A DNA stretch of 5,554 bases from a virus (taxonomy: Duplodnaviria; Heunggongvirae; Uroviricota; Caudoviricetes): the IMG/VR virus record IMGVR_UViG_2706794685_000013; one strand, written 5' to 3'. Shown piece after piece: positions 1-5,554 of the stretch (the first letter of the stretch is position 1; each line of letters opens with the position of its first letter). Under the pieces are notes generated by a model. That model saw nothing but the letters and a program-made list of their open reading frames with translations. It was not told the origin of the DNA and searched no databases. Made by a program: the position numbers and the translations under genes.

Positions 1-406
1 GGGACGGAAGTCGCTGTCGTTCTCAAAATCGGTGGAGCTGCATGACAAAGTCATCGGGCATTATCTGAACATAAAACACTATCAATAAGTTGGAGTCATT
101 ACCCGATATCCTGCTGAGAACATAAACACCCACGGATCGAGGCGTACGCTATCATGTTGCTGTGCACCGCCCAGTTTATAATTGGCGATGGTATCGATAT
201 CCATGTACCACACTGACATGTTTTAAAAAATGCAATAAGACATTGTATCTGAAAGAAAAAACAGGATTTTGAGGCGCTTTTTTATACCGTTTTCCGTGTT
301 TTTAACTGCCTGATTTTATTGAAATCTTTTTTAGTTTTGCAGAAAGGATTTTTTGCTCGATCGCTTTAATTTTATACATTCCTGATAACGGAAATTTTTT
401 TGCCCG

Positions 407-436
407 TTGACAGTTTTTGTTCTCCGGGGCTATATT
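407..436 (+). promoter_or_regulatory. Putative sigma70 promoter: -35 TTGACA (407-412), 18-nt spacer, -10 TATATT (431-436), preceded by an A/T tract (392-401) resembling an UP element
   Basis: Exact TTGACA hexamer and a 5/6 match to TATAAT at allowed spacing, read directly from the sequence. Oriented toward the Rha-like gene at 679. Confidence 0.4.
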
Positions 437-497
437 CCTCACACAACCGCAAAATCGGTTGTCGGGATTGGCGTCTCGGATAACATCACAACGCATA

Positions 498-518
498 GCC
501 GCGTTTGCGGTTTTTTTT
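498..518 (+). terminator. Putative intrinsic terminator or attenuator in the leader: short GC stem (gccgc/gcggt, loop gttt) followed by a run of 8 T
   Basis: Hairpin plus T8 tract about 55-75 nt downstream of the predicted start site. The stem is short (4 GC pairs plus one GU), so strength is uncertain. Confidence 0.3.
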
Positions 519-678
519 GCGTTAAGCATTGCCACATTCGCATTATGGTGGGGCGTGCAGGGGCGGAGAAATCCGCGCCGGGTTTTGTGATGACCGGTTA
601 CGCCAACCCTGTACGTCTCACCACCTCCCTGATTGGCGTCAGAGGTGGTGATCATCCAATTAATTGGAGTCATCACAT

Positions 679-1239
679 ATGAATACAGCTATAACTTTTT
701 CTAACGAGTCACCAAAAGTCTTTTTCAAAGATGGTCGCCTGGTTACCACCTCTCAAGCTGTTGCCGACTACTTCGATAAACAACATAAACACGTTTTAGC
801 TAAGATTGACACACTCGACTGCTCTCCCGAATTTACATCAGCCAACTTTTCGGCCGATGTTCAGACTGTCGAAATTGGCAACGGCGCAGANNNNNNNNNN
901 NNNNNNNNNNNNNNNNNNNNNNNNNNNNNNNNNNNNNNNNNNNNNNNNNNNNNNNNNNNNNNNNNNNNNNNNNNNNNNNNNNNNNNNNNNNNNNNNNNNN
1001 NNNNNNNNNNNNNNNNNNNNNNNNNNNNNNNNNNNNNNNNNNNNNNNNNNNNNNNNNNNNNNNNNNNNNNNNNNNNNNNNNNNNNNNNNNNNNNNNNNNN
1101 NNNNNNNNNNNNNNNNNNNNNNNNNNNNNNNNNNNNNNNNNNNNNATGCACTCTGGAACGGTTTAAATTTTATCTGGAGCAACATGGGTGGATCGTTGCC
1201 CGTAAAGAACAATTGGTGGAAAGGTTGATGCGGTTTTAA
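679..1239 (+). CDS. Phage regulatory protein, Rha family (central part masked by N 891-1145)
   Basis: ATG at 679 with GGAG about 10 nt upstream. N-terminus MNTAITFSNESPKVFFKDGRLVTTSQAVADYFDKQHKHVLAKIDTL matches the Rha-domain pattern (xVTTSxxVAxxFxKxHxxVLxxIxxL). The masked run is 255 nt, an exact number of codons, and the same frame stays open to TAA at 1237-1239. Confidence 0.6.
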   Translation: MNTAITFSNESPKVFFKDGRLVTTSQAVADYFDKQHKHVLAKIDTLDCSPEFTSANFSADVQTVEIGNGAXXXXXXXXXXXXXXXXXXXXXXXXXXXXXXXXXXXXXXXXXXXXXXXXXXXXXXXXXXXXXXXXXXXXXXXXXXXXXXXXXXXXXXCTLERFKFYLEQHGWIVARKEQLVERLMRF

Positions 1240-1248
1240 TGAATGCAA

Positions 1249-1280
1249 AACCCCGGATGATCACCGAGGTTAATTTTATC
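1249..1280 (+). terminator. Putative intrinsic terminator after the Rha-like gene (stem aaccccgg/ccgaggtt with one mismatch, loop atgatca, then aattttat)
   Basis: Imperfect 8-bp inverted repeat followed by a T-rich tract immediately after the stop codon. Confidence 0.3.
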
Positions 1281-1365
1281 GAGCGTGATTGCCGCTAATC
1301 GCCATCGCTCTGATTGAGCGTAAATCATTCAGGTTATTCAGTTCTTCCTTCTGCTCTCGCTGACG

Positions 1366-1536
1366 TCAATAAATCCCATCATTGCGATCAACCTCATCCT
1401 TAACCATTGATGCGAGCAGTTCTTCCAGTTTCTGCGCTGACAGCTTTACCTGGTGATCTTCAGCATCTTCCCGGGCTATTGTGGTTCGCGCAGTGGCTGA
1501 TTTTGCTGACATCACCACAGGGGGCAGACGGACCAT
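1366..1536 (-). CDS. Hypothetical small protein (56 aa, MVRLPPVVMSAKSATARTTIAREDAEDHQVKLSAQKLEELLASMVKDEVDRNDGIY)
   Basis: ATG at 1536-1534 with GGAGG 10 nt upstream (plus-strand cctcc 1547-1551). I do not recognise the family. The longer ORF in the six-frame track (to 1647) uses a TTG start and would run through the tfa 3' hairpin, so I prefer the shorter form. Confidence 0.3.
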   Translation of the reverse strand: MVRLPPVVMSAKSATARTTIAREDAEDHQVKLSAQKLEELLASMVKDEVDRNDGIY

Positions 1537-1600
1537 TGAACCATGGCCTCCGGAACAAATAAGGGCAAAAATAACAACCACTATCGAAAGCTCACAAACT

Positions 1601-1760
1601 AACCGCAGCACGTTCCTGCATACGACGTGTCTGCGGCATAATCCCAATGATTACTCCCTGACAGGATTTGCAGGCCACTCAATATCAGGTGCAGTTGATG
1701 TATCAACACGATTCAACAATACCCGATATTTATTCCATGCCTCCAGCAACGATCTTTCTT
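1601..1760. repeat. Direct repeat copy A (about 140-160 bp): 3' end of a tfa gene plus its 3' hairpin; partner is 2651-2800
   Basis: Long identical stretches shared with 2651-2800 (for example ctgcggcataatcccaatgattactccctgacagg and ccactcaatatcaggtgcagttgatgtatcaacacg), with scattered substitutions and one 1-nt indel. Confidence 0.85.
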
Positions 1761-1884
1761 CCTCCGTTGCGATTTCCAGATCTACAGCATCCTGCAGTGG
1801 CGCAATATACTCACTAAATTCCTGGATGTAGAACTGTGTGGTGACGGTCTTCCAGCCATTCGGCTCCTGCTGTATCGAAGCATA
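1651..1884 (-). pseudogene. tfa: Tail fibre assembly protein (lambda Tfa-like), C-terminal 77-codon fragment lacking a 5' portion and start codon
   Basis: Minus-strand translation ...[54 protein letters not shown] closely matches the lambda Tfa C-terminus as I recall it (...[55 protein letters not shown]). Stop TAA at 1653-1651; the frame is closed upstream by TAG at 1887-1885. Confidence 0.65.
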
Positions 1885-1988
1885 CTAGGCTATTTCAATA
1901 TCGCTATGCTGCGGCAGCATTTAACCCCTTGTAATTCATCGCCATAATTGATTTAATTCACAAATAAAACTATAACATGGTGAAATCA

Positions 1989-2645
1989 ATGAAAACAAAC
2001 ACAGATGATGGGGCTAAAATTTACACACCACTTACCCTAAAGCTTTATGACTGGTGGGTTTTGGGAGTATCAAATCGGCTTGCATGGGGATGTCCTACAA
2101 AGGAACACCTTCTTCCACACTTTCTGGAACATTTAGGTAACAACCATCTGGATATTGGTGTTGGAACTGGGTTTTACCTTACTCACGTACCTGAGAGTAG
2201 TCTGATATCTTTAATGGATTTGAACGAAGCTAGCCTGAACGCGGCATCTACAAGGGCTGGGGAATCAAAAATTAAACATAAAATTAGCCATGATGTTTTT
2301 GAACCTTATCCCGCGGCGTTACATGGTCAATTTGATTCCATTTCCATGTTTTACCTTCTTCACTGCCTGCCTGGAAATATATCTACAAAAAGCTGTGTAA
2401 TACGCAATGCGGCGCAGGCCTTAACTGACGATGGAACTCTATACGGAGCCACAATTCTTGGCGATGGAGTTGTGCACAATAGCTTCGGTCAAAAACTGAT
2501 GCGCATTTACAATCAGAAAGGCATCTTTTCAAACACAAAAGATTCCGAAGAAGGCTTAACACATATACTCTCAGAGCATTTCGAGAATGTTAAAACCAGG
2601 GTTCAAGGTACTGTAGTAATGTTTTCCGCTTCAGGGAAAAAATAG
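1989..2645 (+). CDS. Class I SAM-dependent methyltransferase, small-molecule/protein/RNA type, not a DNA methyltransferase (alternative start ATG 1977)
   Basis: Rossmann-fold motifs in order: motif I LDIGVGTG, acidic post-I LMDLNEASL, motif II FDSISMFYLL, motif III LTDDGTLYGATI. No DPPY/NPPY or PCQ/ENV DNA-methyltransferase motifs. GGTGA lies 5 nt upstream of ATG 1989. Visibly AT-rich relative to flanking phage genes. Confidence 0.8.
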   Translation: MKTNTDDGAKIYTPLTLKLYDWWVLGVSNRLAWGCPTKEHLLPHFLEHLGNNHLDIGVGTGFYLTHVPESSLISLMDLNEASLNAASTRAGESKIKHKISHDVFEPYPAALHGQFDSISMFYLLHCLPGNISTKSCVIRNAAQALTDDGTLYGATILGDGVVHNSFGQKLMRIYNQKGIFSNTKDSEEGLTHILSEHFENVKTRVQGTVVMFSASGKK

Positions 2646-2652
2646 CATCCAA

Positions 2653-2685
2653 CCGCAGCACGTTCTTGCTTAAGACGTGCTGCGG
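2653..2685. other. Perfect 11-bp inverted repeat (ccgcagcacgt / acgtgctgcgg) with an 11-nt loop; likely the tfa 3' hairpin or terminator. Imperfect counterpart at 1603-1636
   Basis: Reverse-complement symmetry read directly. On the minus strand it follows the tfa-fragment stop, on the plus strand it follows the methyltransferase stop. Confidence 0.4.
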
Positions 2686-2699
2686 CATAATCCCAATGA

Positions 2700-2789
2700 T
2701 TACTCCCTGACAGGGTTCGTAGGCCACTCAATATCAGGTGCAGTTGATGTATCAACACGGTTCAGCAACACCCGATACTTTTTCTAGGC
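2700..2789 (-). pseudogene. tfa: tfa 3'-end fragment (last 29 codons), fused in frame to the pin fragment; has an internal TAG where copy A has TGG (Trp)
   Basis: Minus-strand translation [28 protein letters not shown], collinear with copy A ([29 protein letters not shown]). Confidence 0.6.
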
Positions 2790-3026
2790 TTCCACCACCA
2801 GCACGACAAGATGCCGCATACAGTGCCCCAGTCAGTCCAGTTTTCAGACAACCAGTGCGTCACCTTTTTGAAGGCGCTTTAAAGCACGTTTTAATCCAGG
2901 TCGGCCTGTCCTTGTTCCGCTTAATTTATCTTCAAATATTTGTTCATATCCTGCACAAACAAGAGCGTTTCGTTGCAGGTCTGTATTCTGGTCATTTGTT
3001 GATACCCTTACATAGCCAATCAGCAC
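2790..3026 (-). pseudogene. pin: Serine invertase of the Pin/Gin/Hin/Cin family, N-terminal 79 codons only, with GTG start and two in-frame TGA stops
   Basis: Translation VLIGYVRVSTNDQNTDLQRNALVCAGYEQIFEDKLSGTRTGRPGLKRALKRLQKGDALVV*KLD*LGHCMRHLVVLVVE matches Pin/Gin (MLIGYVRVSTNDQNTDLQRNALVCAGCEQIFEDKLSGTRTDRPGLKRALKRLQKGDTLVVWKLDRLGRSMKHLISLVGE), including the catalytic Ser in VRVSTNDQ. Stops replace Trp61 (TGG to TGA) and Arg65 (CGA to TGA). GGGAG lies 6 nt upstream of the GTG. No resolvase C-terminus or DNA-binding domain follows. Confidence 0.8.
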
Positions 3027-3080
3027 GCTGAATCTCCCGTCCAAAAGCACAAATCATGCCATGCAGGCCAGAAACCGCCA

Positions 3081-3106
3081 TTATCTAAAACCTCGGTTTA
3101 CGAGAA
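3081..3106. other. Invertase crossover site (gix/pix/cix-like 26-bp imperfect palindrome), TTATCTAAAACCTCGGTTTACGAGAA
   Basis: Reverse complement TTCTCGTAAACCGAGGTTTTAGATAA matches the gix consensus TTCCTGTAAACCGAGGTTTTGGATAA (as recalled) at about 24 of 26 positions. It sits between the invertase start and the start of the tail-fibre variable cassette, as in Mu, P1 and e14. Confidence 0.7.
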
Positions 3107-4067
3107 CTCGGCACAAGCGGGGAGAAAATACCGTTACTCAGTACAGCGAATACCTGGACTAATCGACAAACATTCAGCGGTGGCCTTTCTGGTGAACTAT
3201 CCGGCAATGCTTCTACAGCTGCAAAATTAAAAACTGCCAGGAAAATAAGCAATGTGGCTTTTGATGGTTCCTCCGATATCACATTAAAAGCAAGTCATGT
3301 TGGTGCGTTTGCCTTAGGGAAAACAGGAAGCACCGTTGCGAATGATAAAGCAGTTGGATGGAACTGGAGTAGCGGAGCCTATAACGCAACNNNNNNNNNN
3401 NNNNNNNNNNNNNNNNNNNNNNNNNNNNNNNNNNNNNNNNNNNNNNNNNNNNNNNNNNNNNNNNNNNNNNNNNNNNNNNNNNNNNNNNNNNNNNNNNNNN
3501 NNNNNNNNNNNNNNNNNNNNNNNNNNNNNNNNNNNNNNNNNNNNNNNNNNNNNNNNNNNNNNNNNNNNNNNNNNNNNNNNNNNNNNNNNNNNNNNNNNNN
3601 NNNNNNNNNNNNNNNNNNNNNNNNNNNNNNNNNNNNNNNNNNNNNNNNNNNNNNNNNNNNNNNNNNNNNNNNNNNNNNNNNNNNNNNNNNNNNNNGGTAA
3701 TTCGATTGTATTGGGTGATAATGACACGGGCTTTAAACAAAAAGGCGATGGTAATCTGGATGTTTATGCTAATAACGTCCATGTTATGCGCTTTGTCTCC
3801 GGAAGCATTCAAAGTAATAAAACCATAAATATTACGGGACGTGTTAATCCCTCGGATTACGGTAACTTTGATTCCCGCTATGTGAGAGATGTCAGACTTG
3901 GCACACGAGTTGTTTAGACCATGAAGAAAGGCGTGATGTATGAAAAATCAGGCCATGTAATCACGGGGCTTGGTATTATCGGTGAAGTCGATGGTGATGA
4001 TCCGGCAGTATTCAGACCAATACAAAAGTTAATTAACGGAACATGGTATAACGTATCGCAGGTATAA
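3089..4067 (+). pseudogene. stf: Side tail fibre variable C-terminal cassette (Sv), promoterless and not joined to a constant region in this orientation; masked 3391-3695; in-frame TAG at 3915-3917
   Basis: Open frame from inside the crossover site: NLGLRELGTSGEKIPLLSTANTWTNRQTFSGGLSGELSGNASTAAKLKTARKISNVAFDGSSDITLKASHVGAFALGKTGSTVANDKAVGWNWSSGAYNA... After the gap: [122 protein letters not shown], which matches the lambda-type Stf C-terminus. The two flanks are in different frames if the N-run length is literal. Confidence 0.8.
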
Positions 4068-4069
4068 TC

Positions 4070-4603
4070 ATGCAGCATTTAAAAAACATTGTCGCAGGTA
4101 ATCCAAAAACCGTTGAACAATACCAGCTAACAAAGAATTTTGATGTTATCTGGTTATGGTCCGAAGATGGAAAAAATTGGCATGAGGAATTAAAAAACTT
4201 TCAGGAGGATACAATAAAACTGGCTTACACAGTTGAGGGAATAATTATTGCTATAGACAAGGATGTATCAGCAATTAATCCAGAAGGTTTAAGTGTCGTT
4301 GAGTTGCCTGATATTACAGCAAATCGCCGGGCTGATATTTCGGGCAACTGGATGTTCAAAGATGGTGCGGTGATAAAGCGAACTTATACCGAGGAAGAGC
4401 AAAGGCAACAAGCGGAAAATGAAAAGCAGAGCCTGCTGCAGCTCGTCAGGGATAAAACCCAGCTGTGGGACTCTCAGCTACAGCTGGGCATCATTTCCGA
4501 TGAGAATAAACAAAAATTAACCGAGTGGATGCTCTATGCGCAGAAGGTTGAATCCACAGACACCTCCAGCCTGCCAGTAACGTTTCCCGAACAACCAGAA
4601 TGA
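4070..4603 (+). CDS. tfa: Tail fibre assembly protein Tfa (lambda Tfa / Mu U family)
   Basis: 177-aa [25 protein letters not shown]...[32 protein letters not shown] is 2 nt after the tail-fibre stop (TAAtcATG), the usual stf-tfa coupling. Confidence 0.9.
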
Positions 4604-4606
4604 GAG

Positions 4607-4636
4607 AAGGCCCGCTATCGGGCCTTAATTTTTATT
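4607..4636. terminator. Bidirectional intrinsic terminator between the convergent tfa genes: stem aaggcccg / cgggcctt (8 bp, loop ctat) followed by aatttttatt
   Basis: Perfect 8-bp GC-rich hairpin with a T tract, placed between the stops of the two convergent tfa genes. Confidence 0.6.
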
Positions 4637-5159
4637 CAGGCTTTTGTGGCCATTCAGGATTTGCCGTATCCACACGGCTGACCAGAACACTGTAGCGTTC
4701 CCATGCTTCCAGTCGTGTGCGTTCCTCGTCTGTTGCCATATTCAGCCTGACAGCTCGTTCCAGCGGCTGGATGACTGATTCAGCTTCGGAAAGCAATGCG
4801 GCCTTTTGTGATTCGGCCTGTTGTTGCAGTTCCTGTTCTGTATATTCCCTCTTTACTACTTTACCATCCAGAAACATCCATTTTCCGTTATTGTCTGCGT
4901 GACGATTTGCCGTAATATCAGGAACTTCAACTATGCTTAGCCCTTCAGGATTAATAGTTGAAACGTCTTTACTGACAGCAACGATGATGTTGTTCTCATC
5001 GTAAGCAATTTTTATGGTGTCTGGCTGAAAATTCTTTTGTTCCTCATACCAGTTTTTGCCATCTTCGCAAAAGAGCCATACCACGCCCGCTTTTTTAGTT
5101 AGCTGGTATTGTTCCGGTGTTTTCGGATTCCCGGCCTTAATATTTTTCAGGTGCATCAT
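4632..5159 (-). CDS. tfa: Tail fibre assembly protein Tfa, alternative copy on the opposite strand (Mu U-prime type)
   Basis: 175-aa [33 protein letters not shown]...[35 protein letters not shown] at 5159-5157 is 1 nt after the upstream fibre stop, with GGGGAG upstream. The longer ORF in the track uses an upstream TTG and is not preferred. Confidence 0.9.
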
Positions 5160-5160
5160 C

Positions 5161-5449
5161 TTAAACACTCCCCACGTTGTACCATATTCCCCCAATCAAT
5201 TTCTGAATTGGCCTTCTGGCAACAGTGTCGACAATATCATCCGCATTGCTGTTAATTGCGGCTGTTAAAACATAACCTGACGCATCGCCAAAGCCGTAGT
5301 CGCGCCATACGTTTTTATATTCAATGCTGCCAAGACGAATATCCCGAACGACATGATTATGCAGCCATGTGCTTAACCAGTTGTTTTCCCACACTGAACC
5401 ATAAATATCGCCACTAGACGCAACTTGCGCACCACTTCCCAGCGCAAAT
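5161..5449 (-). pseudogene. stf: Alternative tail fibre variable cassette (Sv-prime), C-terminal fragment only, truncated at its 5' side by the IS insertion
   Basis: Translation ...[95 protein letters not shown] shares the C-terminal [12 protein letters not shown] signature with the other cassette. The upstream part of the ORF in the track (MSVKLRLPQ) is IS-derived sequence. Confidence 0.75.
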
Positions 5450-5554
5450 TGAGGTAGCCTGAGTTTAACGGACACTCCTTCCTGAAATAGAATGGCATCA
5501 GAAGGAGCTAATAATGAGCAGAAAAACCCAACGTTACTCTAAAGAGTTCAAAGC
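5450..5554 (+). mobile_element. IS3-family insertion sequence (IS600-like), left end and start of orfA; continues beyond the window
   Basis: Element end begins TGAGGTAGCC (IS3-family ends start with TG), followed by AAGGAG and ATG at 5514 opening an ORF MSRKTQRYSKEFK..., which I recognise as the N-terminus of IS3-family OrfA proteins. Tail-fibre homology stops abruptly at 5449-5450. Confidence 0.6.
5514..5554 (+). CDS. IS3-family transposase OrfA, first 13 codons only (partial at window edge)
   Basis: AAGGAG 6 nt upstream of the ATG; MSRKTQRYSKEFK is typical of the start of the IS3-family OrfA helix-turn-helix region. Confidence 0.5.
   Translation, partial: MSRKTQRYSKEFK

Follow-up and report, generated by a model that had tools for sequence, protein, structure and literature searches.

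A decayed Mu G-type tail-fibre switch in a Shigella sonnei prophage, probably locked by IS600 and a large deletion

Invertases of the Gin/Pin family cross-complement each other. Mu G-like segments and decayed invertase genes are reportedly known from Shigella: Tominaga and colleagues are said to have described in 1991 the B segment with pinB of Shigella boydii and a defective pinF of S. flexneri, and S. sonnei was reportedly not one of the subgroups found to have an invertase gene, whether active or defective. The P segment of prophage e14, which has its own invertase PinE, is also flipped by PinQ, which is encoded in prophage Qin and acts in trans (Kirigo et al. 2025, PMC12529663; Plasterk and van de Putte 1985). 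For prophage Phi4 of E. coli EC958, a 3.1-kb invertible segment next to a truncated invertase has already been described, and PacBio reads of one EC958 culture revealed both orientations (Forde 2014, PMC4134206).

The locus compared here with these systems lies in a stretch of viral DNA of 5,554 nucleotides (IMG/VR record IMGVR_UViG_2706794685_000013), the whole of which is called the window. Its layout had been likened in the initial annotation to the Mu G and e14 P segments, and this likeness was borne out by the presence of one crossover site, a truncated invertase gene and two convergent Sv-tfa cassettes. The following features were assigned:

2700-2786, minus strand: surviving 3' part of an older tfa gene, to which the invertase remnant is fused (from its translation and the E. 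coli annotation)
2787-3026, minus strand: truncated Gin/Pin-type serine invertase gene (Pfam Resolvase 4.6e-15; GTG start at 3024-3026)
3081-3106, plus strand: invertase-proximal 26-bp crossover site, TTATCTAAAACCTCGGTTTACGAGAA, with halves TTATCTAAAACC-TC-GGTTTACGAGAA
3089-3917, plus strand: silent variable fibre cassette SvA (translated from locus L005 and compared with NCTC86 and EC958; weak Pfam gp37_trimer match)
3918-4067, plus strand: tail of SvA beyond a TAG codon, the last 49-50 codons in the same frame as SvA, TMKKGVMYEKSGH...
4070-4603, plus strand: tfaA, tail-fibre assembly chaperone gene and homologue of Mu U' (177 aa; Caudo_TAP 4.8e-34)
4607-4626, no strand: GC-rich, terminator-like hairpin between the convergent tfa genes
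4632-5159, minus strand: tfaB, tail-fibre assembly chaperone gene and homologue of Mu U (175 aa; Caudo_TAP 9.8e-37)
5161-5449, minus strand: 3' remnant of cassette SvB, the last 95 codons and the stop (homology to locus L004 ends at 5449)
5450-5554, plus strand: left end of IS600 (IS3 family), terminus TGAGGTAGCC..., with the start of orfA at 5514 (MSRKTQRYSKEFK)

In the G segment of Mu with gin, the invertase, the site, S'v-U' and U-Sv follow one another in the order and orientation found here. Both tfa genes had been called intact, and they are: the encoded proteins have full-length matches to Caudo_TAP (PF02413), equal their Mu counterparts in length and align with them end to end, tfaA with 85% identity to U' (177/177 aa) and tfaB with 82% identity to U (175/175 aa). 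In addition, tfaA is 98% identical to the tfa of E. coli NCTC86, and tfaB was called as a 175-aa gene in every sister locus. SvA and Mu S' share 84% aa identity across 93 aa, and the Sv tips of the window as a whole are only partly related to those of Mu. Unlike Mu, the locus has a lambdoid side-tail-fibre gene with a constant region of the phage_tail_N type instead of the Mu S gene, and in the window the invertase is dead, one site is gone and both Sv cassettes are damaged. With e14 the window shares a defective lambdoid prophage as its setting and an invertible stf/tfa segment of the Pin type, the P segment being invertible by an invertase encoded elsewhere in the chromosome. However, e14 has kept its own invertase and both sites and its inversion yields an expressed chimeric protein, whereas no comparable chimera can form in the window.

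Phi4 of EC958 occupies the orthologous locus between trpA and ompW and is 99.5% identical to the window at the nucleotide level over 190-3390, a stretch that covers the ash-Rha-methyltransferase-tfa::pin remnant and reaches into the first part of SvA. Both carry the same severely truncated invertase and an identical invertase-proximal site, the sequence at 3081-3106 agreeing without a difference with the published Phi4_3prime site. The constant-side site of Phi4 is that of S. sonnei AR_0030 (L004), and the tfa alleles of the window and EC958 have diverged (69% and 82% aa identity). Unlike the window, EC958 has a complete prophage, with a fibre gene of 968 aa and both sites, and its segment flips in culture via an invertase acting in trans. 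The window is set apart from Phi4 by IS600 in SvB, by the TAG codon in SvA and by the probable loss of the second site together with 26 kb.

Sister loci were found by an exact-protein look-up of tfaA, and all ten of them lie on chromosomes of the S. sonnei lineage. The window is 100% identical to three S. sonnei chromosomes (loci L005, L006 and L007) and differs by one SNP from a fourth locus, L012. Positions 3391-3695, a part of SvA that is masked by N and so unreadable in the window, were filled from L005; the initial annotation had passed over this mask.

That the window contains a single crossover site, at 3081-3106, was confirmed by a search of both strands, which found no other at up to 6 mismatches. 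The site has the 26-bp length, the family consensus and the 2-bp core of crossover sites of Gin/Pin/Cin/Hin-type segments and equals Mu gix at 23/26 positions (3 mismatches), with the central dinucleotide shared. A chance resemblance to gix was ruled out by shuffled controls (0/200). A second, inverted site is present in L004, L009 and L012 (in the latter at 13247), and hybrid sites are found in L010 and L011; the constant-side half-site reads TTATCGAATACC. No second site was detected in L005, L006 and L007 within the 9 kb examined downstream.

The reading frame of the adjacent invertase is open for codons 1-60 and is then interrupted by TGA at 2844-2846 (codon 61) and at 2832-2834 (codon 65). 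Beyond approximately codon 80 (~2787) the gene is lost and the tfa 3' remnant stands in place of the rest; the window thus has codons 1-80 only and no adjacent functional serine invertase. In orthologous E. coli loci the two parts are annotated as 'recombinase family protein, incomplete' and as a partial 'tail fiber assembly protein', respectively, and the tfa remnant at 2700-2786 recurs with 90% identity as a direct repeat at 1631-1748. Over its first 180 nt the invertase remnant matches Mu gin at 175/180 positions (97%), and from this identity a Fis-dependent recombinational enhancer should persist in the 5' part of the gene, where it may still function. The position of the enhancer within gin was reportedly described by Kahmann in 1985; in the case of Hin, the enhancer lies ~100 bp away from the hix site. 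A scan of the remnant for Fis-like 15-mers returned candidates that are 49 nt apart instead of 48, which is not a clean match.

The frame of SvA is open from the crossover site (3089) onwards until it meets TAG at 3915-3917, where E. coli NCTC86 has CAG and its tail fibre protein continues from SvA into the part corresponding to 3918-4067. The TAG codon is present in all S. sonnei loci examined. It had been overlooked in the initial annotation. On the plus strand upstream of SvA, neither a promoter-like site nor a start codon was found. The initial annotation had also noted that this cassette is not joined to any constant fibre region. As a description of the layout this is correct; as a defect it does not hold, because the silent S'v-U' cassette of Mu is arranged in the same way. 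On the opposite strand, the SvB remnant agrees without a difference with the C-terminal end of Stf (918 aa) of S. sonnei AR_0030, and in intact relatives it is to SvB that the constant fibre region is joined. The two convergent cassettes are SvA-tfaA on the plus strand, with a nonsense codon in SvA, and tfaB-SvB on the minus strand, with SvB truncated, and no constant fibre N-terminal region (the stf sequence MTVKISGVLKDG...) is fused to a cassette across a site in the window.

The IS element that had been proposed to cut the second cassette was identified as IS600, which begins at 5450 and leaves 95 codons of SvB. The window ends 105 nt into the element, whose terminus and orfA agree with IS600; these 105 nt (5450-5554) are 100% identical to the IS copy of L012, and the latter is in turn 100% identical to IS600 annotated on S. 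sonnei plasmids. The target triplet AAT lies directly before the element at 5447-5449, and its 3-bp duplication was seen in L012 only. There, IS600 is a simple insertion, and directly beyond it come the inverted site and the constant region, which is otherwise open (right junction CACCTCA then AATCCCCCATC; flank marker AATCCCCCATCTG, then TTCCTGTAAACCGAGGTATTCGATAA ~0.6 kb on). In L003, L005, L006 and L008 the right flank of IS600 differs and the AAT duplication is missing. In L005, L006 and L007 the DNA beyond the element is not the rest of Sv but the lysis-to-Q region belonging to this prophage, the arrangement in L007 being inverted. This right flank is collinear and in the same orientation with the YdfR-holin-esterase and methylase-Q region of Phi4, and the deletion-type junction reads CACCTCA then GTTAGTCAGC, with the flank marker GTTAGTCAGCTTCTT. 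Of the 24 contigs accounted for among the tfaA-protein matches, 18 were of the deletion type. The exact SvB-IS600 junction had no match in a collection of species-representative genomes, in which Shigella is presumably folded under the E. coli representative. These junctions suggest that the genome of the window itself is of the deletion type and that the deletion was associated with IS600. The missing DNA could also have been relocated by recombination between IS600 copies instead of being lost, and L007 displays one such inversion.

An intact form of the switch is seen in S. sonnei AR_0030 with its 918-aa Stf, and an inverted form in S. sonnei ATCC 29930 (L010) and in L011, where the fibre protein has 875 aa up to the TAG codon. 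AR_0030 and ATCC 29930 have opposite orientations and reciprocal half-site hybrids, the half-sites of L004 and of L010 and L011 being exchanged inside the 12-bp common core ACCTCGGTTTAC; the inversion breakpoints of L010, L011 and L017 all fall within this core. Homologous recombination was rejected as the source of the flips, given that the two sites share only 12 bp of uninterrupted identity and that their flanks are unrelated. In E. coli, the tfa::pin remnant lies beside cassette A in 302 complete genomes and beside cassette B in 152, and the flipped segment is the sole difference between isolates 4/0 and 4/1-1, whose flanks are 100% identical. The orthologous locus of these relatives therefore occurs in both orientations, with breakpoints in the core of the site. 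The initial annotation had named the pseudogene state of the invertase as one reason for a frozen switch. The TGA stops and the truncation confirm the pseudogene, but it is not the lock, because relatives with the same remnant carry both orientations. Both orientations and breakpoints in the core therefore argue for an invertase acting in trans; in S. sonnei it is the two orientations only that suggest this action, and the enzyme is presumably supplied by another prophage.

Taken together, the locus is very probably a decayed G-type switch of the S. sonnei prophage orthologous to Phi4, locked by IS600 and a large deletion. The region forms the right end of a defective prophage of the lambdoid type, integrated at ompW beside trpA in Shigella sonnei, and carries a host-range switch of the Mu G type. 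In the intact form, which is seen in relatives, the long gene for the constant fibre part lies on the minus strand and is read over the 26-bp site into either SvB-tfaB or SvA-tfaA. A serine invertase of the Gin/Pin family, assisted by an enhancer that Fis binds within the 5' part of the invertase gene, would cut both inverted sites at the central TC/GA, and rotation and rejoining of the sites would fuse the other cassette to the constant part. The local invertase is likely to have been dead for a long time, owing to its stops and its truncation at codon 80, and flipping would have continued via the invertases of other prophages in trans. The lock would then be the insertion of IS600 into SvB at 5450, and in those genomes that are identical to the window a deletion associated with IS600 would later have removed roughly 26 kb. 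Gone with it would be the complete set of head and tail genes and, on the fibre side, the constant gene, the second site and the part of SvB beyond the element. Cassette A, which remains, has no promoter-like site, no N-terminal part and a nonsense codon.

The conclusion of the initial annotation that the region can neither invert nor make a complete fibre is right for this haplotype, in which the second site is absent and lysis genes follow IS600 (L005-L007). It had also been stated that an inverted site and an intact constant stf region just beyond the IS, together with reads showing both orientations, would speak against it; of the sister loci checked L012 does contain the site and the constant region, while L005-L007 do not. 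Were the genome of the window of the L012 type, the switch would be broken but not locked: the second site and the constant fibre gene would come right after a simple IS600 insertion, and an invertase in trans could still flip the segment, then 1.27 kb longer, with no functional fibre in either orientation because of the IS in SvB and the TAG in SvA. L012 is only one SNP away from the window and has the AAT duplication, the site at 13247 and the otherwise open constant region, the window itself has kept the site next to the invertase and the 5' part of the invertase gene undamaged, and inversion in trans is documented at this locus. Nevertheless, a second site is missing from all three loci with 100% identity to the window, and deletion-type contigs outnumber those of the L012 type by about 18:1 among those read, which makes an L012-type genome unlikely.

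It may also be asked whether the remaining pieces (both tfa genes, what is left of Sv, and the orphan site together with its enhancer) have been kept because they serve the host. They might, for example, hinder phages by masking a receptor, as does StfE2, which PinQ generates in e14, or the orphan site might be used by chromosome-rearranging invertases acting in trans. Both tfa genes are full length amid many IS elements and stop codons, and a cryptic-prophage fibre fragment with a role in defence that is switched by an invertase in trans has a precedent in e14 (PMC12529663). Against this stand the SvA cassette, which has neither a promoter-like site nor a start codon and contains its nonsense codon in every S. 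sonnei locus, and the missing second site for inversion. Furthermore, given the youth of the S. sonnei clone, relic ORFs should by chance still be found intact. Maintenance by use is accordingly regarded as very improbable, and the simplest view of tfaA and tfaB is that they are relics which decay has so far spared. It is just as doubtful that the orphan site, the enhancer-bearing 5' end of the invertase gene and the tfa genes are still used by the invertases of other prophages. If they were, recombination with the sites of other prophages might lead to large chromosomal rearrangements, or fibre and chaperone fragments might be expressed and change phage adsorption as StfE2 does in e14.

Locking of the old switch by IS600 and the deletion, the preferred reading, amounts to ordinary prophage decay of a known Mu-type switch and not to a new system, and its importance beyond careful annotation is slight. 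What the locus offers is already known from the literature on the E. coli orthologue. It records the decay stages of one switch in a young pathogen clone, from the intact and the flipped form to the IS-inserted form and the form with both insertion and deletion. It also illustrates the caution that a dead neighbouring invertase does not mean a frozen segment, as family members can act in trans and it is the loss of a crossover site that locks the switch.

A feature map of the window was built from the ORF listing, the sequence, Pfam and annotated E. coli orthologues:

1-103: IS1 end, cutting an ompW remnant
407-682, plus strand: ash gene
664-1239, plus strand: Rha gene
about 1276-1554, minus strand: DUF4376 fragment
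1651-1872, minus strand: first tfa 3' remnant
1977-2645, plus strand: class I SAM methyltransferase gene
2700-2786, minus strand: second tfa 3' remnant, fused to the invertase remnant
2787-3026, minus strand: truncated serine invertase gene
3081-3106, plus strand: 26-bp crossover site
3089-4067, plus strand: SvA, a fibre-tip cassette
4070-4603, plus strand: tfaA, its chaperone gene
4607-4626: hairpin
4632-5159, minus strand: tfaB
5161-5449, minus strand: SvB, the alternative cassette, last 95 codons
5450-5554, plus strand: IS600 left end

Two N masks cover 891-1145 (255 N) and 3391-3695 (305 N). The same stretches measure only 252 and 253 nt in three sister loci (L005, L006 and L007) that match every visible part of the window at 100% identity; the mask lengths are thus unfaithful and do not allow a reading frame to be followed through them in window coordinates. 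The intact ash- and Rha-family regulator genes (407-1239), situated between the ompW remnant and tail-fibre debris, do not fit the usual lambdoid gene order and are conserved in E. coli orthologues; the pair is possibly a remnant of another element. A direct repeat of ~145 nt (1601-1748 and 2651-2797, 90% identical), each copy of which consists of a tfa 3'-end remnant and its downstream hairpin, brackets the intact methyltransferase gene (222 aa, GC 41%). This arrangement is kept at 99.5% in E. coli ST131 and O121 and looks as if tail-fibre modules had been replaced one after another, their remnants piling up around a trapped cargo gene.

Exact-protein look-up of tfaA recovered ten chromosomal loci, among them CP026802 (L010, S. 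sonnei ATCC 29930) and CP032523 (L004), assigned to S. sonnei AR_0030 through its sister plasmid CP032524. All ten share the IS1 junction at window position 103-104 and thus represent one lineage. The locus is situated between trpA and the ompW attachment site, and window 190-3390 shares 99.5% identity with the corresponding position of many E. coli genomes. One of them is ST131 EC958, in which the orthologous region forms the end of a complete 55-kb lambdoid prophage, Phi4.

The crossover site, TTATCTAAAACCTCGGTTTACGAGAA, matches the Mu site gix at 23 of 26 positions, a match found in none of 200 shuffles of the window. The initial annotation had placed this site, the invertase remnant, both tfa genes and the IS600 truncation correctly, and its single crossover site was borne out, as no second copy occurs in the window with up to 6 mismatches allowed. 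Pfam and alignment likewise confirmed that both tfa genes are intact: tfaA (177 aa) and tfaB (175 aa) are full length, equal in length to Mu U' and U, with 85% identity to U' and 82% to U, respectively.

Gene order is that of Mu in the same orientation, namely gin (minus), the G boundary, S'v and U' (plus), then U and Sv-Sc (minus). In AR_0030, a 918-aa minus-strand fibre gene reads ...AVIEYLGL/QETVNK... across the constant-side site (reverse-complemented, TTATCGAATACC-TC-GGTTTACAGGAA) into SvB. The segment is inverted in ATCC 29930 and in L011, where the constant region continues as ...AVIEYLGL/RELGTSGEK... into SvA. This layout and these joins identify the plus-strand cassette beside the invertase as the silent one of this orientation, so that its separation from a constant region, previously read as a defect, is the normal condition, as in Mu. 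The sites of the inverted loci are reciprocal hybrids, TTATCGAATACC-TC-GGTTTACGAGAA and TTATCTAAAACC-TC-GGTTTACAGGAA; all share the 12-bp stretch ACCTCGGTTTAC between unrelated flanks, which limits the exchange to these 12 bp. This is the pattern produced by a serine-invertase reaction at the central dinucleotide. RecA recombination was ruled out for the flips, the common stretch being too short.

The invertase remnant has a GTG start at 3026 and matches Mu gin at 175 of 180 nt, but carries TGA stops at codons 61 and 65 and runs into the tfa C-terminal remnant past codon ~80. Remnant and fusion are common to S. sonnei and E. coli and are hence older than the flips within each species. A 651-nt probe spanning the tfa remnant, pin remnant, site and SvA was contiguous in 302 complete E. 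coli genomes, and the equivalent probe ending in SvB in 152. ST131 strains are among the hits for each orientation (EC958, 5506 and 4224 for one; JJ1886, 4433, 751 and 4993 for the other). Between isolates 4/0 and 4/1-1 the flanks are 100% identical (4862 + 1692 nt), whereas the 3.1-kb segment is flipped and the half-sites are exchanged. With both orientations present in relatives sharing the dead invertase, its decay, which had been named as a cause of freezing, is not what freezes the switch. For Phi4, the published description gives a 3106-bp invertible segment, these two 26-bp sites, an invertase called "severely truncated" and both orientations among PacBio reads; it ascribes flipping to a trans-acting invertase, perhaps that of Phi1 (Forde et al. 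2014, PMC4134206). Trans action within this invertase family is well documented: PinQ acts on e14 (PMC12529663), and action of Fin on the H segment of Salmonella has been described. In cis, the reaction requires the two sites and, we infer, an enhancer in the invertase 5' end, a part that shares 97% identity with Mu gin; the Hin enhancer is located ~100 bp from the site. In the complete E. coli genome NZ_CP082831.1 (SCAID WND1-2021; hits H11 and H130), the pin-remnant junction occurs in both orientations, at two widely separated positions. This reflects either a genuine duplication or an assembly artefact in which an alternative-allele contig was merged into the chromosome, as warned of by Forde et al. 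2014 (PMC4134206).

What locks the switch in the window is found at its other end. Homology of SvB to intact relatives stops at 5449, and the window ends 105 nt into IS600. A sister locus one SNP from the window (L012) shows this IS600 as a simple insertion with a 3-bp AAT duplication (junctions GCGCAAAT/TGAGG...CCTCA/AATCCCCC), beyond which the remainder of SvB is followed by the second site (L012 13247) and by a constant region that is open. This near-identical relative could mean that the window is in the same state, with site and constant region just beyond the element, but such a reading is unlikely, since the window-identical loci belong to the deletion type, as do about 18 of the 24 contigs accounted for. 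In L003, L005, L006 and L008, the right flank of IS600 is GTTAGTCAGC..., without duplication, and the DNA past it is collinear, in the same orientation, with the YdfR-holin-esterase and methylase-Q region of Phi4, which on the EC958 map corresponds to a deletion of roughly 26-28 kb. The deletion, probably IS600-mediated, would have removed SvB's 5' part along with the second site, the constant fibre gene, lom and J, every tail and head gene, the terminase and some of the lysis cassette. The window very probably represents this locked, deleted state. Part of what would have spoken against freezing, a second site and a constant region just past the element, is present in L012.

For this haplotype, the claim that the region is frozen and can make no fibre stands. 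The segment is fixed in orientation A, SvB has been cut short, and SvA lacks a promoter and is interrupted by a nonsense codon. This in-frame TAG (3915-3917), overlooked by the initial annotation, splits off the final 49 codons; in E. coli NCTC86 the codon is CAG and the protein runs on uninterrupted. All ten loci share the TAG, including the two whose constant region reads into SvA. Continued use of the orphan site and the intact tfa genes, for rearrangements or StfE2-like phage defence, is very improbable; the integrity of the ORFs is the argument for it.

Further IS events were observed among the sister loci. L007 carries an additional IS600-IS600 inversion (12645-20270) flipping the Q-to-hok region, and L009 an independent IS600 in the constant fibre region (13501-14764). 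A second IS1 with a ~10 bp duplication lies in the first tfa remnant (window 1631-1640 equivalent) of L004, L009, L010 and L011, only in the S. sonnei sublineage without IS600 in SvB, whose members include both orientations of the segment.

The E. coli orthologue is already known, including its trans inversion with a truncated invertase (PMC4134206). The locus belongs with the classical invertible fibre segments of the Gin/Pin family (Mu G, P1 C, e14 P, S. boydii B). IS-driven pseudogenisation and deletion are the usual fate of Shigella prophages.
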